This document shows positions 4,107-38,918 of a DNA stretch of 64,000 bases, piece by piece (position 1 is the first letter of the stretch; each line of letters opens with the position of its first letter). The notes beneath the pieces are model-generated. The model worked only from the letters and a program-made list of their open reading frames with translations. It was not told the origin of the DNA and made no database searches. Source of the DNA: an uncultured candidatus Porisulfidus sp. (GTDB lineage Bacteria; Pseudomonadota; Gammaproteobacteria; Poriferisulfidales; Poriferisulfidaceae). Made by a program: the position numbers and the translations under genes. Location of the stretch: positions 256,001 through 320,000 of the forward strand of contig OZ241993.1 of assembly GCA_965204575.1 (NCBI GenBank), in the 5' to 3' direction.

Positions 4107-5480
4107 ATGCTCCACCTGCACGACACCGCAACCCGCAGGAAGGTTGCCTTCGCCCCGCTCGACCCGGAGCGCGTCACCTTGTACGTCTGCGGCCCCACCG
4201 TCTACGACCACATCCATATCGGCAACGCCCGCCCGCTGGTCGTGTTCGACGTGCTGGTCCGCGTGTTGCGATCCCTCTATCCCCAGGTCATCTATGCCCG
4301 CAACCTGACCGACATCGACGACAAGATCCTGGATCGGGCCGAACAGGAGAATTGCCCGTACGACGAACTGACCGCCCGCTACATCGAGGCATTCCACGAG
4401 GTGTGCGCCGCTCTCGGAGGCCTAGAGATCGACCTGGAGCCGCGTGCAACCGAAACCATCCCGGCCATGCTGGAGATGATCCAGACCCTGTTGGATTCGG
4501 ATCACGCCTATGAAGCGGACGGACACATCCTGTTCGCGGTGGACAGTTTCGACGGGTACGGCGAACTGTCCGGGCGGCGGGTGGAGGAAATGCACCCCGG
4601 GGCCCGGGTAGAAGTAGCCGAATACAAGCGCAATCCGGCGGATTTCGTGCTGTGGAAGCCTTCAACGCCGAAACAACCGGGCTGGGACAGCCCGTTCGGG
4701 CGGGGCCGGCCAGGCTGGCACCTGGAGTGCTCGTGCATGATCGCGCATCATCTCGGCCCGACCATCGACATCCACGGCGGCGGTCAGGACCTGGTGTTCC
4801 CGCACCACGAGAACGAGCGCGCGCAGAGTTGTTGCGCTCATCCCGGCGAGTCGTTCGTCCGGCTGTGGATGCATAACGGCTATGTCACGGTCGACGGCGA
4901 AAAAATGTCCAAGTCCATCGGCAATGTGCGCCAAGTCCGGGAGCTTCTCGATCACCATCCGGGCGAACTGCTGCGCCTCGCCCTGCTGCACGCGCATTAC
5001 CGCAAGCCGCTGGACTGGACGGATGACCTGCTCCTTCAGGCGCGTCAGATCCTGGACCGGCTGTACCGGGCCTGGCAGGATGCGGGAAGCCCGGAACCCG
5101 ACGAAACCGAGCCGGATGCGGAATTCCTGCAGGCCCTGCTTGACGACCTCAATACCCCGCTGGCCCTGCAGCACCTGCGGCACGAGGCGGCGGCCCTGGC
5201 CCATCTGCAGGGAACGCAGCGCACGGAGGCCGCCCGGCGGCTGTGCGCCGGCGCCCGGATGCTCGGCCTGTTCGGATCCGCGGCCGAAGACTGGTTCCAT
5301 GCCGGCGCGACGGCCGAGAGCCTGGACGATGCCGAGATCGAAGCCCTACTGGCCGAGCGGCAAGCCGCACGGGAAAACGGGGATTACGCGGCGGCCGACC
5401 GCATCCGCGATCAGCTGTTGGAGGCTGGAATCGCGGTGGAGGACCTAGCGGACGGCAGCCACTGGCGGCGGGTACGGTAG
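4107..5480 (+). CDS. cysS: Cysteine--tRNA ligase
   Basis: YVCGPTVYD, HIGN, GRPGWHLECS, DIHGGGQDLVFPHHENE, KMSKS. Confidence 0.98.
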   Translation: MLHLHDTATRRKVAFAPLDPERVTLYVCGPTVYDHIHIGNARPLVVFDVLVRVLRSLYPQVIYARNLTDIDDKILDRAEQENCPYDELTARYIEAFHEVCAALGGLEIDLEPRATETIPAMLEMIQTLLDSDHAYEADGHILFAVDSFDGYGELSGRRVEEMHPGARVEVAEYKRNPADFVLWKPSTPKQPGWDSPFGRGRPGWHLECSCMIAHHLGPTIDIHGGGQDLVFPHHENERAQSCCAHPGESFVRLWMHNGYVTVDGEKMSKSIGNVRQVRELLDHHPGELLRLALLHAHYRKPLDWTDDLLLQARQILDRLYRAWQDAGSPEPDETEPDAEFLQALLDDLNTPLALQHLRHEAAALAHLQGTQRTEAARRLCAGARMLGLFGSAAEDWFHAGATAESLDDAEIEALLAERQAARENGDYAAADRIRDQLLEAGIAVEDLADGSHWRRVR

Positions 5481-5511
5481 ACTGTGCGAATCAAACACTT
5501 CTCTTTGCAAA

Positions 5512-5519
5512 ATGTCTTC
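5512..5519 (+). repeat. Left 8-bp target-site duplication ATGTCTTC
   Basis: Identical to 6787-6794; both copies abut the inverted termini. Confidence 0.85.
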
Positions 5520-6786
5520 GGGAGTTATGCAGACTTGATACAGCCATGAAAGTCCATCGCACCGTCCGCTACCGCCTGCATCCCGGCTCACGCCGGAAAA
5601 ACCAGCAACTGCACGGCACCGCCGAAGCTTGTCGTTTCGTGTGGAACCACATGGTCGGCAAACTCAGGGACGAGTACGAGTTCGGAATCAAGCCGGATTT
5701 CCACTATTACTCGATGGGCAAGGTCTTCACCGTTCTGCGCCGTCACAGCTACAAGTGGTTGCAGGATTATTCGGCATATGTCGTCAAGAGTTCATTGCAA
5801 CCCATCGAGACGGCTTACAAGGAATTCTTCAAGGACGTGAAGACGGGTGGGAAACTCAACCGGAACCCCCCGCAATTCCACGGCAAGTGGACAACCAAGC
5901 CGAGTTTTCCAATCAACTATGTGTCGGCGAAGGTGACGGGAGAGAGCCTGTACGTGCAGAGAATCGGCTGGATGAAGCTGGTCGGCAACAACCCGGACCC
6001 GGACGGCGAATTCAAGTCCGGTCGCGTCTTGCAGGAATGCGGAAACTGGTACGCCTATCTCACTTACGAAGTGCAAGCCGAAGCCAGTCTCCCTCACGCC
6101 ATCAAGGAAGTGGGCATCGACCGCAATGTGAATGAAGACGGGTGGGCGGTATTATCGGACGGCACGAAGCATCCGGGGCCGGATTTGGAGAAGAAAACGG
6201 CACGGCGAAAACGCTACCAGCGCAAGATGGCGCGACAGGTGAAAGGGAGCAACCGCAGAAAGGTCACCAAGGTGAAGTTGCAGAAAGCATTCCGTGCGGA
6301 ATGCTTCGCCCGGTTGAACTGGGCGCACCACGTCAGCAAGAGCATTGCGTCAGAATACGATGTGGCATACATGGAGAAACTGAACATCGGGGACATGACG
6401 AAATCCGCCAAGGGAACGGTGGAGGAACCGGGTACGAACGTAAAAGCGAAGTCCGGGCTGAACCGGAAGATCCTGGCCAGCGCATGGGGCACGCTGGAGT
6501 TGTGCCTGGACTACAAGATGGAAGTGCGCCCTGTACCTCCGGCGTATACCAGCCAGACGTGCCATTCATGCGGGCACGTCGATGAGAAAAACAGAAATGG
6601 AACAGATTTCAAGTGCACCGCTTGCGGGCACGCGGACGATGCGGACGTGAACGCCGCATTGAACATTTTGGCCTTCGGGAATGGGGCGACTGGACGTGGA
6701 GACGGCGGGGTTGCCCGGTCTGAGAAGCGTCAAGAAATGGGACAATCTGGCAGGCGAGAGTCTGCCAAGTTATCTACATAAATCCC
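5520..6786 (+). mobile_element. Non-autonomous tnpB element 1 with terminal inverted repeats and 8-bp TSD (IS1595-like ends)
   Basis: Left end GGGAGTTATGCAGA (5520-5533) vs reverse complement of right end GGGATTTATGTAGA (6773-6786), 12/14; perfect ATGTCTTC direct repeat outside; only cargo is tnpB. Confidence 0.8.
5546..6781 (+). CDS. tnpB: RNA-guided endonuclease TnpB (411 aa)
   Basis: N-terminal RYRLHP...CRFVWN; RuvC motifs [20 protein letters not shown]; zinc finger CHSCG...CTACG. Confidence 0.93.
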
Positions 6787-6806
6787 ATGTCTTCTTTATT
6801 TTCTCC
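6660..6806 (+). ncRNA. Predicted omegaRNA/reRNA overlapping the tnpB 3' end (boundaries approximate)
   Basis: Hairpin TGGCAGGC-GAGA-GTCTGCCA (6748-6767, GNRA loop); position is typical of TnpB guide RNAs. Confidence 0.5.
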
Positions 6807-7257
6807 TCGGGAGAGTATCAAGCAAGTCGAAGAAGGGGATCAATTGGCCCCGAAATTCGATGAAAACGGGCTGATCCCCGTGGTGACCACCGACTACGAA
6901 TCCGGCGAAGTGCTGATGGTCGCGTACCAGAACGCCGAGGCGCTGGAGCGGACCATCCGGAGCGGCGAAGCCTGGTACTACAGCCGCAGCCGCCAATGCC
7001 TGTGGCACAAGGGCGCCACCAGCGGACTGGTGCAGAAAGTGCGCGAACTGCGCATCGACGACGACCAGGACACGGTCTGGATGCGCGTGACGGTCGCAGG
7101 CTCCGGCGCCAGTTGCCACGTCGGCTACCGCTCCTGCTTCTACCGCAAGGTGCCGACCGGGGATTCGGCCGGCCAAGCGCTGGAACACCTGGAACGCGAC
7201 AAAACCTTCGACCCCGATGAGGTCTACGGCGACGCTGAAAATCCGACCCGCCTGTAA
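6787..7257 (+). CDS. hisI: Phosphoribosyl-AMP cyclohydrolase
   Basis: [41 protein letters not shown]. Confidence 0.95.
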
Positions 7258-7271
7258 CCCCCGCACTGCCG

Positions 7272-10200
7272 ATGCCTTCGACCTTCCGTTTGCTGCTGAC
7301 ACGGCGGCTCGGCCCTTTCTTCTTCACCCAGCTGACCGGGGCCTACAACGACAACGTCTTCCGTAACGCGCTGGTCGTCCTGATCACCTACCGCATTACC
7401 GAACTGGCCGGATTCGGAAGCGAAGAACTGGTTGCCGCCTCCGCCGGGATCTTCCTGCTCCCTTTCCTGCTGTTCTCCGCCCTGGGCGGAAAACTGGCCG
7501 ATCACTTTCCGCGGCACCGGCTGATCCAGCACATCAAGCTCGCGGAATGCGCCCTGATGGCACTGACCTGGATCGGTTTTGCCACCGGGTCAGTCACCTT
7601 TCTGTTCGTCATCCTGTTCTTGACCGGACTGCAGTCCGCCCTGTTCGGTCCGGTGAAGTACGCCATCCTGCCGAACCTGCTGTCCCGGGCCGAACTGCTG
7701 GCCGGCAACGCCTGGATCGCGGTCGGCACGTTCATCTCCATCCTCGCCGGAAGCCTGACCGGAACTCTCGTAATGGGTGTTCCCGACGCCGCCCTGTGGG
7801 TGCCCGGCATCCTGGTGATCAGCGCCGGGGCCGGTTACCTGGCAAGCCACCGGATTCCGGCGCAGGTTCCCGCCGGCGCCGGTCTGCGGCTCTCGTTCGA
7901 GCCGTTCAGCGAAACCGCGCGGATCGTGCGAGAAGGCCTGAGCCAGCCTCGCCTGGCCTGGCTGATGCTCGCCATCAGCTGGTTCTGGATGATCGGGGTT
8001 GGCATGCTCGTTCAGTTGCCGCTGTTCGTCCGGGACGTGCTGGCCGGCAACGAGCAGGCATTGGCGGGCGCGCTTGCGATCTTCACCGTCGGCGTCGGGC
8101 TCGGTGCCCTGTTGTGCAACCGCTGGCTCGGCGGCACGGCGCGGGCGACCCTGGCACCCATATCCGCAGCGGCCTTGGGCGCCGGCTTCGTGTTGCTCAG
8201 CCTCGTTCCCCCGGCCGATGTTCCGCTTCGCGGATTCGCCGACCTGCTGGAGGACCCGCAGGCCGTAACCGCCCTCGGCATCCTGCTGGCGCTTGCCGTG
8301 GCGGGCGGTTTCTATGTTACGCCCCTGTACACCCTGGTGCAGCAGCGGGCGCCGGAGGACCGGCGCGCGCGGGTCATCGCCTGCAACAACATCCTCAATT
8401 CCATCTTCATGGCGCTGGCCTCGGCGACGTCCATCGTCATTTTCCAGTCCGGCGGCACGATCGTCACCGTGTGGCTGGCCATGGCCGCCACCGCTCTCCT
8501 GGCCGCACTGCTGTTGCTGCATTTCACGCAGGGCAGTTTCCGCCATGTCCTTTTGTGGCCGGTCGCGTCAGTCGTACTGATCACGGAAACGCCCCCGCCC
8601 GGTTCGCTGGTATTCGCCCGGCGTGGAAGCGCCTGGGTCGCCTGGGCGCTGGCTGCCACCATCCCCGGCAAACTTGAAATCCATGTTGCTCCCGCGCTGT
8701 TGCGCCGCGCGAGCCTGCGACTGCTCGCCTGCTGGGTCCGCCTGAAACCGCTGGACCCCGCGGCCCTGGACGACCAGTGGCCAGGCAATCAGGATGAACC
8801 CGCCCGCACCGTGCTGATCCTGCCGCCTTCCGGCCCCGAGGGCGAAGCTTCGCTGCTGGAATTGATGCAGACCGCCCGGGAGCGGTCCGGCCGCCCCGTC
8901 GAAGTCGCGTCCGTCAGTGACCCGGAACTCTACATGCCCCGCTTCTACCCGCGCATCCGGGTCGGGTTCGAAAACTGTCCGCTGCCGCCCCGCGCGGCCG
9001 ACGAGCCGGAAGCGCTCCGGCGCGATGCCCTCAAGATCTACGACCTGCTGTGTGAACTGGAATACCGGATGCACTGCCAGGAATGCACGGCATTGCAGTC
9101 CTTGTACGGTGCAGCCCGAAGGTTCGGGGCTGGCTATCCGATCCTGGCCGATCTGGAGCGGACCCTGACGTACCGGCAACTGCTCCAGGCGACCCACGCC
9201 GTCGCCCAGCTGCTTGAGCGGGCCCTGCCGAAGGCACAGGATACGGTCGGCATCCTGCTGCCGAACGCGACCGCCACGCCGATCACTTTTTTCGCCATGC
9301 ACGCGCTTCACCGCATCCCGGTCATGCTCAACTACACCGCCGGGCCAGCCAATGTCGCCAGTGCCTGCCGCACGGCCGGACTGACCCACGTCGTGACTTC
9401 CCGCCGGTTCGTCGAGAAGGCCGACCTTGGAGGCTTGACCGACGCCCTGGCCGGAGACTACGCCCTGCTGTGGCTGGAGGATCTGAGGCCGCAACTGAGC
9501 CTCGGCATGAAACTCAAGGCCGCCTGGCGCGCCATGCGGCCGCCCCCGAAAGGTGATCCCTCGGACCCCGCCGTAGTGCTGTTCACCTCCGGGTCGGAAG
9601 GCGAACCCAAAGGCGTCGTGCTGAGCCACCGAAACCTGCAGCGCAACCGTTGCCAGGTCCGCGCGGTGCTGAACCTGACTCCCCAGGACCACCTGCTGCT
9701 GTGCCTCCCCACCTTTCACTCGTTCGCCTTGGGCGTTGGCCTGCTGCTGCCGTTGATGGCCGGGCTGCGCTGCACCCTGTACCCCAGCCCCCTCCACTAC
9801 AAGCAGATCCCCGAACTGATCCGAAAGCACGATATCACCGTGTTCTTCTCCACCGACACGTTCCTGAACGGCTACGGGCAGGCGGCAAGCCCGGAAGACC
9901 TGCAAAGCCTGCGCTTGATCGTGGCCGGCGCCGAACCGCTCAAGCCGGGCACCCGGAAATTCTGGCAGGACCGTTTCGGTCTGACCGTCCACGAGGGCTA
10001 CGGCGTGACCGAAACCTCACCCGCGGTCAGTGCCAACACGTTTGCGTGCAACCGACCGGGCTCGGTCGGCCGCCTGATGCCGGATATCGAAGCGCGCCTG
10101 GAACCGCTGGACGACTCCCAGGACACCATCGACACCACCCGCGGGCGATTGTTTCTGCGCGGCCCGAACGTGATGTCCGGCTACTGGATGCCGGGGGAAA

Positions 10201-10607
10201 GCCGGCTATTGACCCCTCCGGAGGACGGCTGGCACGATACCGGCGACGTTGCCGAATTCGACGATGACGGATTCCTGAGCCTGCATGGCCGAGCCAAGCG
10301 GTTCGCCAAGATCGGAGGCGAGATGGTGTCGCTCGCCTACGTAGAGCAGCAGGTCAGCGAAGTCTGGCCGGAATACCGTCACATCGTCTGCGCCGTCAAC
10401 CACCCCACCCGAGGAGAGCAATTGGTCCTCATTACTGAGCATCCCGAGCCGGACCGGGGTCGGTTGAGACAGGCCCTGGGGGAACGGGGAGTGGGAGAGC
10501 TGGCGCGGCCCCGGCTGGTTTTGCCGGTCGAGGTTCTGCCGCTGCTTGGCAGCGGCAAACCGGACTTGCGGAAAGCACAGGAACTGGCGCTCTCGGTGCT
10601 ACACTAG
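7272..10607 (+). CDS. aas: LplT-like MFS transporter fused to Aas-like acyl-ACP synthetase (middle acyltransferase domain degenerate)
   Basis: N-terminal GAYNDNVFR...FGPVKYAILP MFS motifs; AMP-binding LFTSGSEGEPKGV, EGYGVTE, WHDTGD, LGSGKPD. Confidence 0.88.
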   Translation: MPSTFRLLLTRRLGPFFFTQLTGAYNDNVFRNALVVLITYRITELAGFGSEELVAASAGIFLLPFLLFSALGGKLADHFPRHRLIQHIKLAECALMALTWIGFATGSVTFLFVILFLTGLQSALFGPVKYAILPNLLSRAELLAGNAWIAVGTFISILAGSLTGTLVMGVPDAALWVPGILVISAGAGYLASHRIPAQVPAGAGLRLSFEPFSETARIVREGLSQPRLAWLMLAISWFWMIGVGMLVQLPLFVRDVLAGNEQALAGALAIFTVGVGLGALLCNRWLGGTARATLAPISAAALGAGFVLLSLVPPADVPLRGFADLLEDPQAVTALGILLALAVAGGFYVTPLYTLVQQRAPEDRRARVIACNNILNSIFMALASATSIVIFQSGGTIVTVWLAMAATALLAALLLLHFTQGSFRHVLLWPVASVVLITETPPPGSLVFARRGSAWVAWALAATIPGKLEIHVAPALLRRASLRLLACWVRLKPLDPAALDDQWPGNQDEPARTVLILPPSGPEGEASLLELMQTARERSGRPVEVASVSDPELYMPRFYPRIRVGFENCPLPPRAADEPEALRRDALKIYDLLCELEYRMHCQECTALQSLYGAARRFGAGYPILADLERTLTYRQLLQATHAVAQLLERALPKAQDTVGILLPNATATPITFFAMHALHRIPVMLNYTAGPANVASACRTAGLTHVVTSRRFVEKADLGGLTDALAGDYALLWLEDLRPQLSLGMKLKAAWRAMRPPPKGDPSDPAVVLFTSGSEGEPKGVVLSHRNLQRNRCQVRAVLNLTPQDHLLLCLPTFHSFALGVGLLLPLMAGLRCTLYPSPLHYKQIPELIRKHDITVFFSTDTFLNGYGQAASPEDLQSLRLIVAGAEPLKPGTRKFWQDRFGLTVHEGYGVTETSPAVSANTFACNRPGSVGRLMPDIEARLEPLDDSQDTIDTTRGRLFLRGPNVMSGYWMPGESRLLTPPEDGWHDTGDVAEFDDDGFLSLHGRAKRFAKIGGEMVSLAYVEQQVSEVWPEYRHIVCAVNHPTRGEQLVLITEHPEPDRGRLRQALGERGVGELARPRLVLPVEVLPLLGSGKPDLRKAQELALSVLH

Positions 10608-10770
10608 CTTTGGGGCTCATATACAATAATCCGCAAGCAGACCTTGTATATCCATTGACAGATCATCGGGGTCGCTTGACCGAACCGCGCCCGAAGGCCC
10701 GGCTCGGACAGCGGCGAACGCCCCTCCCTGTCCAGCCGCGCCAGTCCCCAACGCCAGTATGTTGAACGCG
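10592..10770 (-). ncRNA. Predicted omegaRNA of element 2 (boundaries approximate)
   Basis: Minus-strand hairpins CCGAGCCG-GGCC-TTCG-GGC-GCGGTTCGG (cUUCGg loop) and ATATACAA-GGTCTG-CTTG-CGGATT-A-TTGTATAT (gCUUGc loop). Confidence 0.5.
10604..10611 (+). repeat. Left 8-bp TSD of element 2 (CTAGCTTT)
   Basis: 7/8 match to CTAGTTTT at 12031-12038. Confidence 0.65.
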
Positions 10771-12030
10771 GCATTGATGTCCGCGTTCCCCGCGTATCCG
10801 CAGGATACGCATTCGAATCTCTCTCGCCGACGGTTCGCCTCCGCTACATGCCCGCATCGGTGGCAACGCTGGCTCGTGTACGCCGGGTCGACCGTCTCCA
10901 TCCGGTACGCCTTGTAGCCTAGCATGAAGCGCAACCGGCCCCAGCCGCTTTCCGCAATGCCTCGGTTCAGGGCGGATTTCGCGTTGATATGCTTGCCCGG
11001 CTTCTCCACCGTGCCCTTGGCCGACTTCATCATGTTCCTGATCTTCAGACCCTCCACGCAGACCGTCCCGAACCGGTTCGCCAAGTCGTGGCTGACATGG
11101 TGCCGCCAGTTGTCCCGGATGTAGGCGATCCTCCGGTACAGTTTCGCCACGATCTTTCGTTCCTTCTCGCGACGGTGCGAATTCACCTGGATGGTTTTAC
11201 CTTGTCTGGTTAGCCTAGGCTCTCCATCCGCGTCCAAAAGGGGCACCCGTTGGCGGCGGTCCATCTTTCGCTTATGCCGTTTCAGTTTTGTTTCAAGATC
11301 GGAGACGTCCGGCATGAAAATTCGGTCGGGCTCCGTGGTGGCCACGTTCCACTTCCCCATGTCCAGCCCGACCGCCTCGCCGTTGTCCTCCGGTTTCGTA
11401 TCCGGTACTTCCCAGAACACCGACACATACCACTTCCCGTTCGGAGGCTTGACCACCACGGCCTGTTTTGCCTCGCCGTAAGCCCATGGATCACCACCCT
11501 GACGGTGGATCGGCACCCAACCCACCTTGGTCACGTAGAGTTTGCCGTCCGCGATCCGCACGTTCTGCGGAATCGTGAACGAGTCGCCGTCTTCCTTGTG
11601 CTTGAACCTCGGAAAGCTACACTTGCCCTTCCTGGCTTCCTTCATGGCATCCGCATACCGTTTCAGCACATACCGCACTTCCGCATACGGCAACTCCCTC
11701 AGCCATTCGTGGCCTTCGCCGTTGCGCAGCCTCGTGAATGCCAGGCCCAGGGTGAAGAAAGTCGGCGAAGGCTTTTCGCCTTTCCCTTCTTTATAGGCTT
11801 TCATCGCATCCCGGTTCCGTCCAATGGCCCAGTTCCAGACGTAGCGGTTCGCCCCGGCGATGCCGGACAATAACTGAGCCCGGCGCAAGGTGCCGGGATA
11901 CAGGCGATAGACGGACGAACGGATCATGCAGGGATTATGCCATGCCGGAAACCGACCTGCTAAAGATGGGATAAGATATTGAATATATACGGATTATCAT
12001 GAGTCTTTCGGATTATCGTATACAATTCCA
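10612..12030 (-). mobile_element. Non-autonomous tnpB element 2 with terminal inverted repeats and near-perfect 8-bp TSD
   Basis: GGGGCTCATATACAATAATCCGCAAG (10612-10637) vs reverse complement of 12005-12030, TGGAATTGTATACGATAATCCGAAAG; inner 18 bp 16/18 identical; TSD 7/8. Confidence 0.72.
10617..11927 (-). CDS. tnpB: RNA-guided endonuclease TnpB (436 aa)
   Basis: YRLYP...NRYVWN; RuvC motifs GLDMG, CVEGL, NADINAAFNI; zinc finger CHRCG...CVSCG. Confidence 0.93.
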   Translation of the reverse strand: MIRSSVYRLYPGTLRRAQLLSGIAGANRYVWNWAIGRNRDAMKAYKEGKGEKPSPTFFTLGLAFTRLRNGEGHEWLRELPYAEVRYVLKRYADAMKEARKGKCSFPRFKHKEDGDSFTIPQNVRIADGKLYVTKVGWVPIHRQGGDPWAYGEAKQAVVVKPPNGKWYVSVFWEVPDTKPEDNGEAVGLDMGKWNVATTEPDRIFMPDVSDLETKLKRHKRKMDRRQRVPLLDADGEPRLTRQGKTIQVNSHRREKERKIVAKLYRRIAYIRDNWRHHVSHDLANRFGTVCVEGLKIRNMMKSAKGTVEKPGKHINAKSALNRGIAESGWGRLRFMLGYKAYRMETVDPAYTSQRCHRCGHVAEANRRRERFECVSCGYAGNADINAAFNILALGTGAAGQGGAFAAVRAGPSGAVRSSDPDDLSMDIQGLLADYCI

Positions 12031-12091
12031 CTAGTTTTCGAGATATAACGGTGAATACCCGCTCCTTTGGAACACCAATTGGGAGGTGCGG

Positions 12092-13603
12092 ATGCGAGAC
12101 ATAACACCAGTTCCCATGGATCTACTGCTGACCGCAGTGGACGTGCTGGCTTCGCTCTTGCTGTTCGGCATCGGGATCCTGATCCTGTTCGCGATGGTGC
12201 TCTACATCGTCGACGTCACGCAAACCCGCCACGCGGTGCGCCGCAACTATCCCGTCATCGGCCGCTTCCGGTACTGGTTCGAGCATCTGGGCGAATTCTT
12301 CCGCCAGTACTTCTTCGCCATGGACCGCGAGGAGATGCCGTTCAACCGGGCGCAGCGCTCCTGGATCTACCGCGCCAGCAAGAACCTCAGCAACACCCTG
12401 CCCTTCGGCTCCACCCGCGACCTGACGCGCCCCGGCACCGTTCTGTTCGTCAATGACCCTTACCCTGACCTCGACCAGAAGGACGTTGATCCTCCATTGC
12501 TGACCATCGGCCCGGGAACCCTGGAGCCTTACGCCACGGAACATTTCTTCCACATCTCGGCCATGAGCTACGGCGCCATCTCGAACGTCGCCGTTCAAGC
12601 GCTGTCGCACGGTGCGGCCAAGGCGGGATGCTGGCTCAATACCGGCGAGGGCGGGCTGTCGCCCTACCACCTGGAGGGAGACTGCGACCTGGTGTTCCAG
12701 ATCGGCACCGCCAACTACGGCGTGCGCGACGAGCACGGCAACTTCTCGGAGACACGTCTGCAGGAATTGGCCGAAATCCCGCAAATACGCATGTTCGAGA
12801 TCAAACTCTCGCAGGGTGCCAAGCCTGGCATGGGCGGGATCCTGCCGGGTGTCAAGGTGACCGAGGAAATCGCCCGCATCCGCGGCATTCCGGCCGGAAA
12901 GGCATCACTCAGCCCGCGGCGGCATCCCGGCATCGGCAACACTTCCGATTTGCTGGACAGGATTGCCCGGACCCGCGACCTGACCGGTAAGCCGGTCGGC
13001 TTCAAGACCGTGATCGGCTCCGAACAGATGCTGGATGACTGGCTGGATGAAATCCTGCGCCGCGGTCCCGAGTTCGCCCCGGACTTCATCACCGTCGATG
13101 GCTGCGATGGCGGCAGCGGTGCCGCCCCCATGCCGTTGCTCGACGCCGTCGGGCTGCCGCTGCGCGAAAGCCTGCCGATGGTGGTCGACCGCCTGGAGCA
13201 GGGGGGCCTTCGCGACCGCGTCCGCGTGATCGCGTCCGGCAAGCAGGTCAATCCGTCCGATGTGGCCTGGGCGCTGTGTCTGGGAGCGGATTTCGTCTGC
13301 TCGGCACGTGCGTTCATGTTCGCGCTCGGCTGCATCCAGGCCATGCAGTGCAACCGCAATACCTGCCCGACCGGCGTCACCACGCACAATCCCCGCCTGC
13401 AGCAGGGGTTGAATCCGAAGAACAAGGCCGTCCGGGTCGCGCACCTGGCCCGCAACATGGAGACGGAAGTCGCCATGATCGCGCACTCCTGCGGCGTGGC
13501 TCACCCGCGTGCGCTGAACCGCACCCACGCGCGCATCGTGCAACCCAACGGCCTGAGCATCTCGCTGCACAAGCTTTACCCGATGCCCGTCCGAACCGCC
13601 TGA
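12092..13603 (+). CDS. FMN-binding glutamate synthase family protein
   Basis: ISAMSYGA, NTGEGG, EIKLSQGAKPG, GCIQAMQCNRNTCPTGVTT; GGAGG RBS before ATG 12092. Confidence 0.9.
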   Translation: MRDITPVPMDLLLTAVDVLASLLLFGIGILILFAMVLYIVDVTQTRHAVRRNYPVIGRFRYWFEHLGEFFRQYFFAMDREEMPFNRAQRSWIYRASKNLSNTLPFGSTRDLTRPGTVLFVNDPYPDLDQKDVDPPLLTIGPGTLEPYATEHFFHISAMSYGAISNVAVQALSHGAAKAGCWLNTGEGGLSPYHLEGDCDLVFQIGTANYGVRDEHGNFSETRLQELAEIPQIRMFEIKLSQGAKPGMGGILPGVKVTEEIARIRGIPAGKASLSPRRHPGIGNTSDLLDRIARTRDLTGKPVGFKTVIGSEQMLDDWLDEILRRGPEFAPDFITVDGCDGGSGAAPMPLLDAVGLPLRESLPMVVDRLEQGGLRDRVRVIASGKQVNPSDVAWALCLGADFVCSARAFMFALGCIQAMQCNRNTCPTGVTTHNPRLQQGLNPKNKAVRVAHLARNMETEVAMIAHSCGVAHPRALNRTHARIVQPNGLSISLHKLYPMPVRTA

Positions 13604-35320: not shown

Positions 35321-37572
35321 GATGGTTCCTGACCGGCCCTTGGCCGGTCATCGGCATGTTCCTGCTGCTGGCCGGTTCATTGGCCATCATGGCCGAGGCC
35401 ACGCAGAGTTCGGGCCATTTCCACCGGTGGCAATGGTGGGTGGCCAGCTTCAACGGCGTGCTGGCCTTGGCGCTCCTGGCATTGATTGGTCTCAGCCTTT
35501 CCCGTCTGATTCGGAGACTGCACCGCCGCGAGGCTGGATCGCGCCTGTCGCTGCGCATGACGGCCATGTTCGCCAGCTTCACATTGATTCCGACCGCCAT
35601 GGTGTTCTTGTTTTCGGTGTGGCTGATCTCCAGCGGCATCGACAGCTGGTTCGACGTGGGAGTCGATGACACCCTGAGCAAGGCATTGGAATTAAGCCGG
35701 ACCTCGGTCGACATGCAAATGCGGGAGCGACGCTCGCAAGTGGAGCGTCTATTGCAGGAGCCCATTGATGTCAGCGACCCCGAAGCCATGGTCGTACGCA
35801 TGCATGACCTGGTGGTCCAGACGGGCGCGCTGGAAGCGACGTTGCTGGATTCCAGCAACAAAATCATCGCCTCCCAGGGAGAAGTGCCGGACATCCTGCC
35901 GGATCTGCCGGGCGAAGCCCAGCTCCAATTGCTGCAGGAAAGCGAGGAAAGCGGCTTTTACATGGCTCAGGAAGAACACCCGGATCACGGCACCATTGTC
36001 CGCATCCTGATGCAGGTTCCAGCATTGCGTCGGGAGCTGCCTTTCACGGATCAGGAGCTGCCCCTGACCCTGAACCAGGAGCTGCCCCTGACCCTGGACC
36101 GGGAGATGCCCCTGACGACTCAGGAACTGTCCCTGACCCTGCAGATCCTGTACCCGGTGTCCGAGTACATGCTCGGCCTGACCGGCAGCGTCGAAAAAGC
36201 CTCCGTCACCTACCAATCACTCCTGGAACAGCGCACCCCCCTGAAATACAACCTCACCTTCGTGATGGCCCTGGCGGTCCTGTTGGGGCTCCTGTTCGCG
36301 ATGTGGGCCGCCCTGTTCTCGGCACAGCGGATCCTGTCGCCGATCTCGGAACTCGCACGCGGCATCGAGGCCGTGGCGGTCGGCGAATACAGCCAGCGCC
36401 TCCCGGCCGGGCGGCGCGATGAACTGGGCCAACTGGTGCATTCCTACAATGACATGATCGAGCGCCTCGCCAACGCCCGATACGTGGCGGAGACCCAGCG
36501 CCTGACCATCGAGGAGCAACATACCTACCTGCATACGGTCCTGGAGCACTTGTCCTCCGGAGTCATCAGCGTGGATGACCGCAACGAGGTGATTACCGCC
36601 AACCATGCCGCTGGCTCCATCCTGGATCTGGACATCGAACGCTATCTCCGACAGCCCCTCTCGGCTCTGCGCGAGGAGCATCCCCAGCTTGAACCGCTGT
36701 GGAACCTGATGGACCACCAGCAGTACAGCATTACCGAACTCAGGCGGCAATTGCAGATCAACGACGAACTGAAGGTGCTCCACTGCCATGGCGCACAGTT
36801 GCCGAAGGGTGCGGGCTACGTGGTGGTATTCGAGGACATTACGGACCTGCAGCAAGCGCAACGCCAGGCCGCCTGGGGCGAGGTGGCCCGGCGGCTGGCC
36901 CACGAAATCAAGAACCCGTTGACCCCCATCCGCCTGTCGGCGGAACGAATGCAACACCGCATCCAGCCCAGTCTCGCCGCGGAGGATTCCGAGATCCTGC
37001 AACGTGCCACGCAAACCATCGTGCGGCAGGTGGAGTCGATGAAAACCATGATCGACGAATTCAGCGAGTATTCTGCCGACCGCTTCACGCCGGAGTTGTT
37101 GGACCTGAATGCCCTGAGTATGGAGGTGCTTGGTTTATATGAAGAGGATCGACCGAAAATTTCCATCCGGACCGAGTTGAGCGAAGTCCCTTCCTGGATC
37201 CAGGGAGACCCGGACCGCATACGCCAGCTGCTGCACAACCTCATCAAAAATGCACTGGAAGCACAAGAGGAACAGGCGGAAGGAACCATCATCCTGAGTA
37301 CGGGAATACAGGAGAACACGGTGACACTGAAAGTGCGGGATACCGGACCCGGCTTTGCCCCAGAGATCATCGCCCGGGCATTCGAACCGTATGTCACCAC
37401 CAAACCCACCGGAAACGGGCTCGGGCTTGCCGTCGTGTACCGGATTACAGAGGATCATCAGGGGCGGATTCGCGTATACAATGACCCAACGGGAGGCGGG
37501 TGCGTAGAAGTCGAGTTCAACGCATCCCCGCAGCCTCCGCAAGAAGTTCAGAGTCCAGCAGCCGTGGCATGA
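35305..37572 (+). CDS. ntrY: NtrY-like HAMP/PAS sensor histidine kinase
   Basis: AWGEVARRLAHEIKNPLTPIRLSAER, HNLIKNA, DTGPG, FEPYVTTK, GLGL. Confidence 0.92.
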   Translation: MAPALRWFLTGPWPVIGMFLLLAGSLAIMAEATQSSGHFHRWQWWVASFNGVLALALLALIGLSLSRLIRRLHRREAGSRLSLRMTAMFASFTLIPTAMVFLFSVWLISSGIDSWFDVGVDDTLSKALELSRTSVDMQMRERRSQVERLLQEPIDVSDPEAMVVRMHDLVVQTGALEATLLDSSNKIIASQGEVPDILPDLPGEAQLQLLQESEESGFYMAQEEHPDHGTIVRILMQVPALRRELPFTDQELPLTLNQELPLTLDREMPLTTQELSLTLQILYPVSEYMLGLTGSVEKASVTYQSLLEQRTPLKYNLTFVMALAVLLGLLFAMWAALFSAQRILSPISELARGIEAVAVGEYSQRLPAGRRDELGQLVHSYNDMIERLANARYVAETQRLTIEEQHTYLHTVLEHLSSGVISVDDRNEVITANHAAGSILDLDIERYLRQPLSALREEHPQLEPLWNLMDHQQYSITELRRQLQINDELKVLHCHGAQLPKGAGYVVVFEDITDLQQAQRQAAWGEVARRLAHEIKNPLTPIRLSAERMQHRIQPSLAAEDSEILQRATQTIVRQVESMKTMIDEFSEYSADRFTPELLDLNALSMEVLGLYEEDRPKISIRTELSEVPSWIQGDPDRIRQLLHNLIKNALEAQEEQAEGTIILSTGIQENTVTLKVRDTGPGFAPEIIARAFEPYVTTKPTGNGLGLAVVYRITEDHQGRIRVYNDPTGGGCVEVEFNASPQPPQEVQSPAAVA
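36031..36141 (+). repeat. In-frame tandem repeat (5 units of 21-24 bp) in the NtrY periplasmic domain
   Basis: RELPFTD-QELPLTLN-QELPLTLD-REMPLTT-QELSLTL. Confidence 0.9.
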
Positions 37573-38918
37573 GTCGTGAAACCATCCTGATCATCGACGA
37601 CGAGTCCGATATCCGGGCTCAGATCCGGGACATTCTGTCCGACCACGGTTATCGGATCCTGCAAGCCGACTCCGCTTCTGTCGCCCGCAAGCTCGTGCGC
37701 CAACAATCCGTGGACCTGGCATTGCTGGACATCTGGATGCCGGGCGAAGACGGGATGAGTTTGCTCAGGTCGTGGCGCCACGACGACACCCCGGAGTTCC
37801 CGATCCTGATGATGTCCGGGCACGGCAACGTCGAAACCGCGTTGGAAGCCACCCGACTGGGGGCCTGGCATTACCTGGAAAAGCCTTTCGCGATGGACAA
37901 ACTATTGCTCAGCGTTTCGCGGGCACTGGAAACCTACCGCCTGCGCCGGCAAAACCGGGCCCTGTCCAAGGATTCTGCGGCGACCGAGCAGTTGGTCGGC
38001 GACAGCCCAGAAATCCGGCGACTTCGGGAACAAGCACAGGCGTTCGGCGACGACGGCAACCCGGTCCTGATCCTCGGCGAGCCGGGCTGCGAATTTCTGG
38101 CGCTCGCCAACCACATTCACTACAACGGCGTTCGCCATCACTGGCAGCTCGTCATCGGCAGCGGACAGAACCTGAATCAGCGCCTGCTGGAAGAGACCGC
38201 CGGCAACGGCACCTGCCTGCTGCTCGAAGCGCACGGGGGCACGCTGTTCATGAATCCACTGGACCAATTGACGATCAAAACGCAGAGGCGCTTGCTGTCA
38301 GTGCTTGAAAACCACCATCTCCTCCAAGCAAATGGCACCGCCACGCCGATTGACGTACAGCTCATCGCCACCCTGCACCAGAGGCCCGAAGCCGCGCTGG
38401 CCTCGAACATCCTGGATCCCTCGCTGTATGCCCAGTTGGCGCCCTACACCTTGACTCTTCCGCCCTTGCGCGAACGGACCCAAGATATCCCGGAACTGGT
38501 CGAGCACTATGCCGCCCGTTACTGCACGCGTGAAAACCTGCCCATGCGCAGTTTTCCGCCCAGCGTGATGGAAACGCTGCGCAAATACGACTGGCCGGAC
38601 AACGTGCACGAGTTGCGCCGCCTGGTCTATCAACTCCTGATCAGCGGCGACGGGGCCAAGGTCGGACTGACGGAAATCAATCACCTGCTCCATCCGGTGC
38701 CGCAGGCCGATGCTCCCCCCGGAGGACTGGAAAACCTGATGGCCTTGCCGTACCGGGAAGCCCGCACCCGGTTCGAGCAGATGTATTACCAGTTTCAGAT
38801 CGAGCAAAGCGGCGGCAGCATGAAACGGCTGTCCGACAGCACCCACATGGAGCGGACCTACCTCTACAGGAAGTTGCGCGATCTTGGCATCGAACGCCCG
38901 CGGGAATCCTCTTCTTGA
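37569..38918 (+). CDS. ntrX: NtrX-like response regulator (degenerate AAA+ domain)
   Basis: ILIIDDE, LLDIWMPGEDG, MMSGHG, ERTYLYRKL. Confidence 0.9.
   Translation: MSRETILIIDDESDIRAQIRDILSDHGYRILQADSASVARKLVRQQSVDLALLDIWMPGEDGMSLLRSWRHDDTPEFPILMMSGHGNVETALEATRLGAWHYLEKPFAMDKLLLSVSRALETYRLRRQNRALSKDSAATEQLVGDSPEIRRLREQAQAFGDDGNPVLILGEPGCEFLALANHIHYNGVRHHWQLVIGSGQNLNQRLLEETAGNGTCLLLEAHGGTLFMNPLDQLTIKTQRRLLSVLENHHLLQANGTATPIDVQLIATLHQRPEAALASNILDPSLYAQLAPYTLTLPPLRERTQDIPELVEHYAARYCTRENLPMRSFPPSVMETLRKYDWPDNVHELRRLVYQLLISGDGAKVGLTEINHLLHPVPQADAPPGGLENLMALPYREARTRFEQMYYQFQIEQSGGSMKRLSDSTHMERTYLYRKLRDLGIERPRESSS

Follow-up and report, generated by a model that had tools for sequence, protein, structure and literature searches.

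The persistence of TnpB is usually attributed to a TAM that is identical with the target motif of its own transposase. Among the DDE elements, ISL2 and IS1031 are groups of the IS5 family with short, specific target-site duplications (TSDs). Both are listed, together with IS630, for DDE-associated TnpB in the accessible part of PMC13565253, and the available text of PMC10691335 already describes TnpB within inverted-repeat DDE transposons as well as solo TnpB mobilised in trans. For the DDE branches, the same text analyses neither TAM nor TSD and shows no RNA structure. Literature searches returned no text on the TAM of DDE-borne prokaryotic TnpB and none on IS1595 or ISL3 ends for TnpB, two families that the supplements of PMC10691335 may name. 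Carriers of the IS1595 or ISL3 type duplicate a variable 8-bp site, and the logic of a TAM equal to the target motif therefore fails for them.

The DNA analysed here, a window of 64,000 nt from an uncultured candidatus Porisulfidus sp., contains two elements, each with one intact tnpB bounded by terminal inverted repeats (TIRs) of about 24 bp and with an 8-bp TSD on both sides. Their features, in window positions, are as follows.

5520–6786, plus strand: element 1, 1267 bp, with tnpB as the sole gene
5509–5511, plus strand: AAA, directly before the left TSD of element 1; A5511, at −1, is the proposed TAM position
5512–5519 and 6787–6794, plus strand: left and right TSD copies of element 1, ATGTCTTC; empty site in an X5 contig and in G405
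5520–5537, plus strand: left TIR of element 1, GGGAGTTATGCAGACTTG, of the IS1595-family type and shorter than in other family A copies
5546–6781, plus strand: tnpB of element 1, 411 aa, from ATG at 5546 to TAA at 6779–6781 within the right TIR
6763–6786, plus strand: right TIR of element 1, ending ...CTACATAAATCCC; its last 6 nt (6781–6786, AATCCC) are the 3′ strand of the predicted long-range helix
10612–12030, minus strand: element 2, 1419 bp, with tnpB as the sole gene
12038–12031, minus strand: left TSD copy of element 2, AAAACTAG, with G at 12039 as position −1, the proposed TAM
12005–12030, minus strand: left TIR of element 2, TGGAATTGTATACGATAATCCGAAAG, from the family alignment
10617–11927, minus strand: tnpB of element 2, 436 aa, with its TGA stop within the right TIR
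10612–10637, minus strand: right TIR of element 2, from the family alignment; the right end of the element is 10612
10611–10604, minus strand: right TSD copy of element 2, AAAGCTAG, the first 8 nt of the predicted guide

The first-pass annotation of this DNA had noted that both tnpB stop codons lie inside the 3′ TIR and that the bases 5′ of the reconstructed empty sites differ (GCAAA for element 1, TCTCG for element 2), and both observations were borne out. The element ends were taken from family alignments; an automatic TIR finder missed several of the copies in this genome. Homology among the seven family A, three family B and six family C copies of the genome breaks off exactly at the TIR ends, and a TIR plus an 8-bp TSD, with at least 6 of 8 TSD positions matching, was found in 14 of these 16 copies. 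Among 78 related loci, 35 reached a combined TIR and TSD score of at least 23, compared with a maximum of 22 in 40 mismatched-pair controls. On the phylogenetic tree, a quick IQ-TREE run with SH-aLRT support, the 14 rows labelled as having no TIR within the DDE-end clade are loci under the score cut-off, several of which show TIR motifs.

Empty sites are known from a related population (DNA run X5) and from two genomes of the same genus, G405 and G057, in which neither element is present. An X5 contig connects position 5511 directly with 6787, with 1275 bp absent and eight letters compatible with both sides; this gap equals element 1 plus one TSD copy, and the joint thus represents empty site 1. 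At this site G405 reads ATGGCTTC, preceded by cgcgcg and followed by tttg. Another X5 joint leads from 10607 to 12081, and its 1473 bp are in only rough agreement with the 1427 bp expected for empty site 2; there, G405 reads CTAGCCTC, preceded by ...ctaca and followed by cag.

Membership of IS200/IS605 was rejected, since no match to the Y1 transposase gene tnpA (PF01797) was detected in the genome (98.75% complete) by a search that was positive in 6 of 14 control genomes, and the elements have TIRs of about 24 bp, 8-bp TSDs and empty sites. By TIR type and 8-bp TSD, families A and B belong to the IS1595 family, whose elements L265, L267, L279, L282, L287 and L291 have TIRs of the type GGGAATTATATA.../GGGGATTATATAC... 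and perfect 8-bp TSDs; one matching IS1595-family element is present in the same-genus genome G405 (end example GGGAATTATAGCGATTGTTTGACA), and the same-genus locus L287 has an intact IS1595 transposase. Families A and B both have the TTGACA block and the 9 terminal nucleotides of the IS1595-family TIR type (GGGAATTATA...TTGACA). No DDE_Tnp_IS1595 transposase gene was found inside element 1 or element 2, which contain tnpB alone and, having IS1595-type ends, are therefore called non-autonomous, moved in trans by an IS1595-type transposase. Families A and B are probably immobile in this genome at present, because the only trace of an IS1595-type transposase that it keeps is a split, frameshifted remnant at 1082022–1082425.

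A third tnpB family (C), located outside the window, has ISL3-type ends and an 8-bp TSD. The genome contains three identical ISL3 copies whose TIRs agree with the family C TIR at 19–20 of 24 positions, and by its TIR type, its 8-bp TSD and the availability of a transposase in trans family C is assigned to the ISL3 family. The ISL3 copies were also considered as movers of all three families, and were dropped for A and B because the TIRs of these families differ from the ISL3 TIR and because element-rich genomes lack an ISL3 transposase. Such genomes are G001, G002 and G003, with 39, at least 155 and 69 tnpB matches, respectively (at least 155 matches and 259 TIR hits occur in a single 3.8-Mb genome); ISL3 transposase is absent from all three, and IS1595-family genes are present there. 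A fourth PF01610 match in the genome studied here, at 793 kb, was discarded: it is no transposase but an ORF that resembles a desaturase and has part of an ISL3-like sequence as its tail. As possible partners, IS256-type transposases (PF00872) are present in just one of the three expanded genomes G001–G003, and IS4/IS5-type transposases (PF01609) are abundant in G001 and G003 and nearly absent in G002. Within 4 kb of 110 tnpB loci, neither an ISL3 gene nor any recurrent neighbour gene was found. Likewise, none of about 40 loci around DDE transposase matches, including 29 IS1595-family loci, contains an element carrying a DDE gene and tnpB together, and the tnpB matches near L266 and L270 are adjoining tnpB genes or remnants located outside the autonomous IS1595 elements. 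Only the solo form of tnpB was thus seen within an inverted-repeat pair, with the partner transposase of these exact clades sampled in few genomes.

Both TnpB proteins contain the Pfam domains HTH_OrfB_IS605, OrfB_IS605 and Cas12f1-like_TNB above the cut-off, corresponding to a complete HTH, RuvC and zinc-ribbon architecture. They share 35% identity, and TnpB of element 1 aligns over its full length with ISDra2 TnpB chains (E ~1e-28). All 14 proteins compared share residues D192, E277, D367, C339, C342, C357 and C360; on the basis of the motifs, we take the first three to be the RuvC acidic triad and the four cysteines to be those of the zinc finger. The dN/dS of the tnpB body is 0.09–0.20 for element 1 relative to family A copies, 0.11–0.16 for element 2, and 0.09–0.26 overall across the three families. 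Judged by its sequence, TnpB has kept its RuvC nuclease intact, and purifying selection acts on the protein.

One could suppose that tnpB is now a passenger in decay that has lost its function, and that the end structures serve only to bind the transposase, given that the copies are old (dS between copies 0.3–2), that this genome offers families A and B no intact partner transposase, and that the ORF is frameshifted in 2 of the 16 copies. However, in each of the three families dN/dS has stayed low despite this long divergence, the ORF is intact in 14 of 16 copies and the catalytic residues are invariant, the ORF tail displays RNA-type constraint and covariation (see below), and both frameshifts fall at the same homopolymer run and may be assembly errors, which makes such a loss of function quite improbable.

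The 3′ region of both elements is predicted to encode a structured RNA, with the following parts.

6660–6786, plus strand: predicted omegaRNA scaffold of element 1 (RNAalifold and pair counts); its 5′ limit is uncertain and its 3′ limit is the TIR tip
6677–6682, plus strand: 5′ strand of the predicted long-range helix or pseudoknot of element 1 (GGGAAT, codons G378–N379), pairing with the TIR tip
6693–6731, plus strand: conserved helix GACGT (6693–6697) / GCGTC (6727–6731), which encloses a variable stem and includes TCAA
6737–6779, plus strand: predicted terminal hairpin of element 1, formed by a linker and the right TIR's inner half, with the GAGA loop at 6756–6759
10612–10751, minus strand: predicted omegaRNA scaffold of element 2, with UUCG and CUUG hairpins; GGGG (10749–10746) pairs with CCCC (10615–10612)

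The tetraloop hairpins noticed earlier (GAGA in element 1, UUCG and CUUG in element 2) are all present in the minimum-free-energy folds, and relative to shuffles the folds of elements 1 and 2 have z-scores of −3.75 and −2.06, respectively. In the long-range helix, 91.7% of cells are paired, a level reached by none of 500 shuffles (83.7 ± 1.4%), with 17 double-change cells versus 6.9, counts that overstate the covariation, as the sequences are related and the independent switches few; slid controls were paired in 4–73%. With ISL3-type elements added, pairing rises to 94.5% versus 83.8%, and the pairs swap between GC (33) and CG (7) and between AU (25) and GC (9). Element 1 itself has one mismatch in this helix, A6681 with A6782. 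The outer pair of the GACGU/GCGUC helix is GC in 23 and CG in 11 sequences, and compensatory changes occur at 4 of its 5 pairs. Folding of individual sequences produced the terminal hairpin with at least 6 free 3′ nucleotides in 22 of 34 cases, the tail not being free in the other 12. In most comparisons dS is about 2–5 times lower in the ORF tail than in the body. A search of the 3′ regions against Rfam gave no match at gathering or E-value thresholds. The internal copy of the TIR tip could also be kept for a reason at the DNA level rather than for RNA pairing.

The pairing and covariation indicate a structured omegaRNA, predicted to overlap the 3′ end of the ORF and to continue to the element's right end, with its own 3′ end paired back into the scaffold. 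Since the last 6 nt of the TIR pair with codons about 105 nt upstream, the scaffold would end at the TIR tip and the guide should begin at the TSD. The course proposed in the first-pass annotation, namely an omegaRNA that spans the right TIR to the very end, with the guide starting at the TSD, is thus the most likely one, in view of the covarying TIR-tip helix and the terminal hairpin. Two other starting points that had been considered there were not supported: a guide starting inside the TIR and aimed at the element ends would occupy a stretch that is base-paired and covaries as scaffold, and the upstream TCAA (6730–6733), as an IS608-like scaffold end, sits within the conserved covarying GACGU/GCGUC helix.

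Metatranscriptome contigs extend from the 3′ region across the TIR into the flanks, which is weak evidence of a read-through transcript as contigs give no RNA ends. The RNA coverage, obtained from contigs of one run (share 0.05), comprises 6394–7387 and 10327–10685 of the interval 5000–12200, the uncovered parts being uninformative. In one RNA-library contig of another copy (depth 6), adapter sequence immediately precedes position 6729, a hint only.

This adapter could mark an RNA end between GCG and TCAAG, as would be expected if the scaffold ended upstream at GCGTCAA and a fixed guide lay in or ran through the TIR, so that TnpB would cut the element's own two ends; both TIRs would then present an identical target. 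We regard such a fixed guide as very improbable: the stretch after GTCAA is a paired hairpin whose strands covary between copies, the final 6 nt are paired to codons farther upstream, TCAA belongs to a conserved covarying helix, and the G at −1, outside the element (see below), would be left unexplained, while a single contig of depth 6 is insufficient to define an RNA end.

For a guide that begins at the TSD, the relevant positions are the following.

6787–6806, plus strand: predicted guide of element 1, placed from the scaffold end; it opens with the 8 nt of the right TSD copy, also the hisI start codon region
6787–7257: hisI ORF, overlapping the right TSD copy of element 1
10592–10611, minus strand: predicted guide of element 2, placed in the same way
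Candidate TSD-plus-flank targets: ATGTCTTCTTTATTTTCTCC for element 1 and AAAGCTAGTGTAGCACCGAG for element 2

The bases 5′ of the TSD were compared over many copies, as had been suggested in the first-pass annotation, with the tally restricted to sites with a recognisable TSD. Confirmed relatives number 517, and at least 260 matches lie in G001–G003. Of 73 insertions, 60 have G directly 5′ of the TSD (position −1), 11 have A, 2 have T and none has C (purine in 71 of 73), while the mirror position +1 of the same sites is unbiased (A22 C16 G19 T16). In tnpB-less IS1595 and ISL3 controls, G occurs at −1 in 8 of 44 sites, or in 3 of 44 when mirrored, and Fisher tests of the tnpB sites versus these 44 controls, of which just 10 are IS1595-family elements with clear ends, gave 6e-12 and 2e-16. 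The A-like clade of element 1 has a purine at −1 in 19 of 19 sites, T at −2 in 11 of 19 and A at −3 in 12 of 19; the other IS1595-type clade, which includes element 2, has G at −1 in 46 of 48, and ISL3-type elements have it in 5 of 6. Extra sites from G001–G003 have G at −1 in 18 of 18 cases. Two copies of the genome were left out of the tally, A_834k (TSD 5/8) with A at −1 and C_1158k (TSD 2/8) with C.

The idea that these TnpBs have relaxed or different TAMs had been based on GCAAA and TCTCG, which do differ; it can now be put in the sharper form of a strand-specific purine at −1 that is absent from the controls. Since the TSD is variable, a TAM would have to be located just outside it and to be minimal, and the one-sided signal is best read as a putative minimal purine TAM adjoining the TSD. 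Against this reading, the TAMs of characterised TnpBs are 4–5 nt long, far longer than a single base. Moreover, filtering after insertion would by itself have to be very strong to yield G in 46 of 48 sites, and tnpB-less IS copies are evidently fixed without any.

DDE transposases do have weak flank preferences, as seen in the controls with A at −1 in 16 of 44 and T at +1 in 24 of 44, and control L265, the TIR of which is very close to those of the TnpB elements, has G at −1. The purine could thus stem from the site choice of the DDE transposase, alone or in complex with these ends, with TnpB being mere cargo with unrelated guide and TAM rules; the small number of IS1595-family controls leaves room for this. 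We nevertheless consider it unlikely, because the bias is strand-specific relative to tnpB, with G in 60 of 73 sites at −1 versus 16 of 73 at the complemented mirror position, although the TIRs are near-symmetric and offer no obvious cue to orientation. Moreover, G is infrequent at −1 in the controls in either orientation, and the same bias is found with two unrelated DDE end types, IS1595 and ISL3.

The TSDs themselves are AT-rich in a roughly mirror-symmetric manner, as are those of the tnpB-less controls. There is also a possible excess of A at TSD position 3, one among many positions tested.

In DDE-borne Fanzors, according to the accessible part of PMC13565253, the TAM includes the 5′ TSD and the scaffold takes in the 3′ TSD. 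By analogy, the 3′ TSD copy could be included in the scaffold here and the guide begin after it, with the AT-rich TSD, in its 3′ part, acting as the TAM. This arrangement appears improbable, since the TSD is not fixed, its AT-richness is about mirror-symmetric and common to controls lacking tnpB, and a variable 8-nt stretch is unfit as part of a conserved scaffold; the sole one-sided signal specific to tnpB lies outside the TSD and would be left unexplained.

Altogether, with moderate confidence, we propose that these are non-autonomous IS1595-type elements with an omegaRNA built in part from the TIR, a guide that starts with the TSD, and a minimal purine TAM outside the TSD. The omegaRNA would be transcribed from the 3′ end of the tnpB ORF and bound by TnpB, with the right TIR playing a double role: its inner half would provide the 3′ strand of the hairpin, and its last 6 nt would close the scaffold through the upstream codons. 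The guide would be the read-through sequence, that is, the 8-bp TSD and then the flank, and the target would be the empty allele, consisting of the TAM, one TSD copy and the flank. The purine read as the TAM would be G in most clades, including that of element 2, and in the clade of element 1 a purine preceded by T and A. At an occupied site, the place of the TAM is taken by the C of the TIR tip, which would shield that site, and cleavage of empty alleles may drive retention or homing of the element.

One could go further and hypothesise, more tentatively, that TnpB is nearly TAM-less (one G or purine) and near-obligatory for the establishment of an insertion, having been refitted once from IS1595 ends onto ISL3 ends. 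Every empty chromosome copy might be cut and the element copied in by repair, as a gene drive in multi-copy symbiont genomes, or TnpB might physically bias the insertion site of the DDE transposase; in either case, an RNA-guided nuclease would have become adapted to transposons that have no target motif.

If true, the proposed purine TAM outside the TSD would show how OMEGA systems colonise DDE transposons without a fixed target, which is relevant to the spread of RNA-guided nucleases, and would suggest a reason for the large expansion of these elements in some symbiont-like genomes. Nucleases of ~410–470 aa with a very permissive TAM would also be candidates for compact genome editors. The expectation of the first-pass annotation that the arrangement would be mechanistically new must be narrowed, since DDE-associated TnpB has been published (PMC10691335, as far as its available text goes); it is the IS1595 and ISL3 end types and the TAM logic that appear to be new.

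Compared with the ISDra2-type TnpB of IS200/IS605, the proteins described here have the same architecture and a full-length match, and by prediction their RNA likewise comes from the last part of the ORF and reaches the right boundary of the element. As in that system, the scaffold is predicted to fold its 3′ terminus back onto itself, a pseudoknot of prokaryotic OMEGA RNA being described in the accessible part of PMC13565253, and in both the read-through flank would be the guide and the TAM would lie on the side of the left flank. In contrast to that system, the genome lacks Y1 TnpA, and the elements have inverted repeats and an 8-bp TSD rather than asymmetric hairpin ends without duplication. 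Here, the TAM cannot be the target motif of the transposase; it is apparently a single purine, with the TSD placed between it and the left end.

The DDE-associated TnpB branches of Altae-Tran et al. 2023 (PMC10691335, in the text available) resemble these elements in having inverted terminal repeats around tnpB, the 3′ end of tnpB no more than 250 bp from the transposon end, and solo tnpB genes with transposon-like ends that are thought to be mobilised in trans. They differ in the type of ends, IS630 being named in the main text of that work and IS1595 and ISL3 ends being found here. Fanzors in eukaryotic DDE transposons are likewise TnpB-like nucleases carried as cargo between TIRs and TSDs and face the same problem of reconciling TSD and TAM. 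Their solution, in the part of PMC13565253 consulted, is a fixed TSD (TA, TTAA) that is part of the TAM, with the 3′ TSD in the scaffold, whereas the elements described here have a variable TSD of 8 bp, with the conserved base beyond it.

Finally, IS1595- and ISL3-family insertion sequences and their non-autonomous derivatives share the TIR types and the 8-bp TSDs, and MITEs likewise require a transposase in trans. Unlike these insertion sequences, the elements described here carry a nuclease and a guide RNA as cargo, and their right TIR is predicted to double as structured RNA; their insertion sites display a one-sided purine that is absent from those of autonomous IS1595 and ISL3 copies.

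The genome carrying the two elements is a single contig of 1.82 Mb with 60% GC. Element 1 is inserted between cysS and hisI, and the features concerned are listed below in window coordinates.

4107-5480, cysS, left neighbour of element 1
5512-5519, left copy of the flanking 8-mer ATGTCTTC
5520-6786, plus strand, element 1
5546-6781, plus strand, element 1 tnpB ORF, 411 codons
6779-6781, plus strand, TAA stop codon of this ORF, within the right repeat
6787-6794, right copy of ATGTCTTC, with the hisI start codon inside
6787-7257, hisI, right neighbour of element 1
10612-12030, minus strand, element 2

The ends of element 1, GGGAGTTATGCAGA... and ...TCTACATAAATCCC, are mutual inverted copies. Its TnpB contains the Pfam domains HTH_OrfB_IS605, OrfB_IS605, and Cas12f1-like_TNB, and its alignment to the solved ISDra2 TnpB spans the whole protein (E ~1e-28). 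The TnpB of element 2 comprises 436 aa and shares 35% identity with that of element 1; its TGA stop codon also lies within the right repeat, and the element is flanked by AAAACTAG and AAAGCTAG. The observation in the first-pass annotation that both tnpB genes end inside the 3' terminal inverted repeat (TIR) was confirmed by these positions, and the GAGA, UUCG, and CUUG loops that it had reported are all present in minimum-free-energy folds, while its interpretation was partly supported.

Searches with tblastn and with PF07282 revealed 16 tnpB genes in the genome, forming three families: A (seven copies, including element 1, and one fragment), B (three copies, including element 2), and C (six copies). 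An isolated stretch at genome positions 1689-1808 (locus L008) matches the first 40 residues of family A TnpB with 90% identity. Within each family the repeat tips are the exact limit of similarity, and the flanking 8-mers match at six or more of eight positions in 14 of the 16 copies, the two others being A_834k (5/8) and C_1158k (2/8). In a DNA contig from a related population (run X5), position 5511 is joined to 6787 with 8 letters fitting either side; the 1275 bp skipped are exactly element 1 plus one duplication. A second joint in this run, near element 2, fits only roughly. Both elements are absent from the same-genus genomes G405 and G057, and in G405 the empty sites read ATGGCTTC between cgcgcg and tttg (site 1) and CTAGCCTC between ...ctaca and cag (site 2). 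The ends and target-site duplications (TSDs) are real, as the empty sites confirm.

The hisI gene directly abuts the right repeat of element 1 in the same orientation as tnpB, so read-through from the element is probably required to transcribe it. In family A, e.g., at locus L024, the left repeat includes a TTGACA hexamer that resembles a -35 box and precedes the start of tnpB by about 28 nt. In element 1 this region (5520-5545) has lost about 25 bp, the ATG being 27 nt from the tip versus 52 nt in other family A copies, so its tnpB may be reliant on read-through from cysS.

Y1 TnpA was not found in the genome, and the membership of the elements in IS200/IS605 was therefore ruled out. The genome does carry three 100% identical 1348-bp ISL3 copies (Pfam DDE_Tnp_ISL3, Zn_ribbon_ISL3, and HTH_Tnp_ISL3) outside the window, at genome positions 36848-38195, 236196-237543, and 396974-398321 (L033-L035). 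They have 8-bp duplications and repeats resembling those of family C, and ongoing trans-mobilisation of the six family C copies by ISL3 is suggested. The repeats of families A and B differ from this type. Relatives in public genomes have the same layout as the window elements: a combined TIR and TSD score of at least 23 was obtained for 35 of 78 scored related loci, while the scores of 40 mismatched controls peaked at 22, and the repeats begin with GGG(G/A)(A/C)TTATATAC. In three genomes, where tnpB matches number 39, 155, and 69, no ISL3 transposase is present, but IS1595-family transposase genes are. IS1595-family elements have perfect 8-bp duplications and precisely this repeat type, as in GGGGATTATATACTTGACTGACGG (L265), GGGAATTATATATC... 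(L279), and GGGAATTATAGCGATTGTTTGACA (L287, from G405); the last agrees with family A in its 9 terminal nt and its TTGACA block. In the Porisulfidus genome itself, IS1595 is represented only by a split remnant, whose repeat is of this type but decayed.

No tnpB was found inside autonomous IS1595 or ISL3 copies, the tnpB matches at the DDE-hit loci L266 and L270 being neighbouring genes or remnants outside the DDE elements, and the 4-kb surroundings of 110 tnpB loci contain no ISL3 gene. The window elements are therefore non-autonomous, tnpB-only derivatives with IS1595-type ends.

Several other arrangements were observed. In the 3.8-Mb genome with at least 155 tnpB matches (G002, the source of L064), the 14-nt repeat tip was hit 259 times (128 forward and 131 reverse), and some pairs only 741 and 926 bp apart represent internally deleted derivatives. 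IS1595-family elements at L265 (1013-3363), L279, and L291 are about 2350 bp long, with about 1.3 kb of extra, non-tnpB passenger. At L089 (~5411-5440) an ISL3-type tnpB element is followed, immediately past its right duplication, by the start of another repeat of that type, tggcgcttcgagattttgtg, which is a tandem or nested insertion. At genome 793189-793509 (L018), the C-terminal part of a 441-aa membrane fatty-acid desaturase-like ORF matches the ISL3 transposase domain at positions 92-196 only, and may be a domesticated fragment; similar partial matches occur in G004 (L256) and G005 (L257).

On the TnpB tree (quick search, SH-aLRT support, midpoint rooted), a single group of 60 rows contains every repeat-bearing TnpB and is split from 22 repeat-less relatives (support 100). 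The nine rows with ISL3 ends form a single branch (support 100), whose sister is family B (support 98); this suggests that IS1595-type ends were exchanged once for ISL3-type ends.

One could suppose that tnpB is a decaying passenger, but this is contradicted by selection on the protein. Intact ORFs were found for 14 of the 16 genes, 14/14 proteins share D192, E277, D367, and four cysteines, and in pairwise comparisons of the protein body dN/dS lies at 0.09-0.26 (dS 0.27-2.2), indicating that TnpB is kept by selection. The two frameshifted family A copies, L020 (genome 436.87 kb) and L024 (1618.41 kb), are each one A short at the same run of A (GAGAAAAACAG versus GAG-AAAACAG), and because of this coincidence may reflect homopolymer assembly errors or a shared slippage hotspot. 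The ORF tail behaves differently from the body: its dS is ~2-5 times lower in most comparisons, and its dN/dS in family A reaches 0.6-1.1, a signature indicative of nucleotide rather than protein constraint.

Alignments of the 3' regions (A2, A3, and A4, with 15, 34, and 41 sequences) point to a structured RNA. A conserved helix, GACGU/GCGUC, joins 6693-6697 to 6727-6731; at its outer pair 23 sequences have GC and 11 have CG, four of its five pairs have compensatory changes, and the stem inside it covaries too. The upstream TCAA, considered earlier as a possible scaffold end, falls within this helix and is an improbable terminus. Further downstream is a terminal hairpin, in which the repeat, from about -7 inward, is paired with the linker that follows GTSAA; this hairpin with at least 6 free 3' nt appears in 22/34 single folds, part of the tail being paired or the fold different in the other 12. 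The last 6 nt of the repeat are predicted to form a long-range helix with the G378-N379 codons (GGGAAT, 6677-6682), with 91.7% of cells paired versus 83.7 ± 1.4 in shuffles (0/500 as high), 17 double-change cells versus 6.9, and 4-73% paired in slid controls. With ISL3-type elements included, pairing is 94.5% versus 83.8%, with swaps between GC (33) and CG (7) and between AU (25) and GC (9). The switches are few and the sequences related. The distance from the motif to the GRGG codons, 9 nt, is identical in families A and C, and element 1 has one mismatch in the helix.

Prokaryotic OMEGA RNAs are described in PMC13565253 (section 6.2) as having a pseudoknot at the scaffold 3' end, a position comparable to that of the long-range helix predicted here. 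Together these point to a scaffold most likely ending at the repeat tip and a guide starting with the duplicated target, as the first-pass annotation had proposed for an omegaRNA running through the TIR. Its alternative, a guide starting inside the repeat, is not supported, since it conflicts with the pairing of that stretch. The guide predicted for element 1 is identical to the opening 20 nt of hisI. In one RNA library (X1, contigs only), the 3' regions of other copies continue through the repeat into the flanks. One metatranscriptome contig of a related copy (depth 6) has sequencing-adapter letters directly before GTCAAG (window 6729) and extends 479 nt into an unrelated flank, and this start may mark a processing site or the 5' end of an RNA.

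If the guide consists of the TSD and flank, the empty site must carry the TAM on the 5' side of the TSD. The tally took in insertion sites whose repeat was recognisable and whose TSD matched at 7/8 or more (related loci) or 6/8 or more (own copies), rows below these thresholds being dropped blind to the flank; the 73 sites (44 + 11 + 18) include 56 with perfect TSDs.

Base at -1, immediately 5' of the TSD
All TnpB elements (n=73): G 60, A 11, T 2, C 0
Perfect TSDs only (n=56): G 48, A 6, T 2
A-like clade, with element 1 (n=19): A 10, G 9
Other IS1595-type clade, with element 2 (n=48): G 46
ISL3-type (n=6): G 5

The A-like clade also has T at -2 in 11/19 and A at -3 in 12/19 sites. The mirror position, +1 past the right TSD, is mixed (A22 C16 G19 T16). 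A preference of the transposase for a purine at -1 is disfavoured by this one-sidedness and by tnpB-less controls with clear ends (34 ISL3 and 10 IS1595-family copies), where G occupies -1 in 8/44, or 3/44 read from the other end (Fisher tests, 6e-12 and 2e-16), and the sole preference, mild and symmetric, is for A at -1 and T at +1, although the IS1595 control set is small (n=10). A Fanzor-like arrangement with the TSD itself as TAM is not supported, as it leaves a signal outside a variable TSD unexplained. Because the bias is one-sided relative to tnpB despite near-symmetric repeats and occurs with two unrelated DDE end types, the simplest reading is a TnpB-linked cause, a minimal purine TAM. 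The relaxed TAM anticipated earlier is supported in a sharper form, a purine at -1 in 71/73 sites; that TnpB reads it is our inference.

At an occupied site, the C of the repeat tip would take the TAM position and spare the element's own junction, and C was never seen at -1. Enrichment could arise through a TnpB-dependent retention or homing filter, or through coupling to target choice; tnpB-less IS copies were evidently fixed without it. We consider the full mechanism moderately probable, with greater confidence in the anatomy and end type and less in the reading of the TAM by TnpB.

The literature search, to which published supplements may add, yielded no text naming IS1595 or ISL3 ends for TnpB and no TAM or RNA analysis for DDE-borne elements of these types. 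DDE-associated TnpBs with inverted repeats, and solo copies with the same ends mobilised in trans, have been published (PMC10691335). We rate as new the 8-bp-TSD carriers and the predicted repeat-built scaffold and one-base TAM outside the TSD. The review PMC13565253 discusses reasons for the rarity of DDE association in prokaryotes and gives ISL2, IS630, and IS1031 as the DDE partners of TnpB, whereas the window elements have IS1595-type ends.
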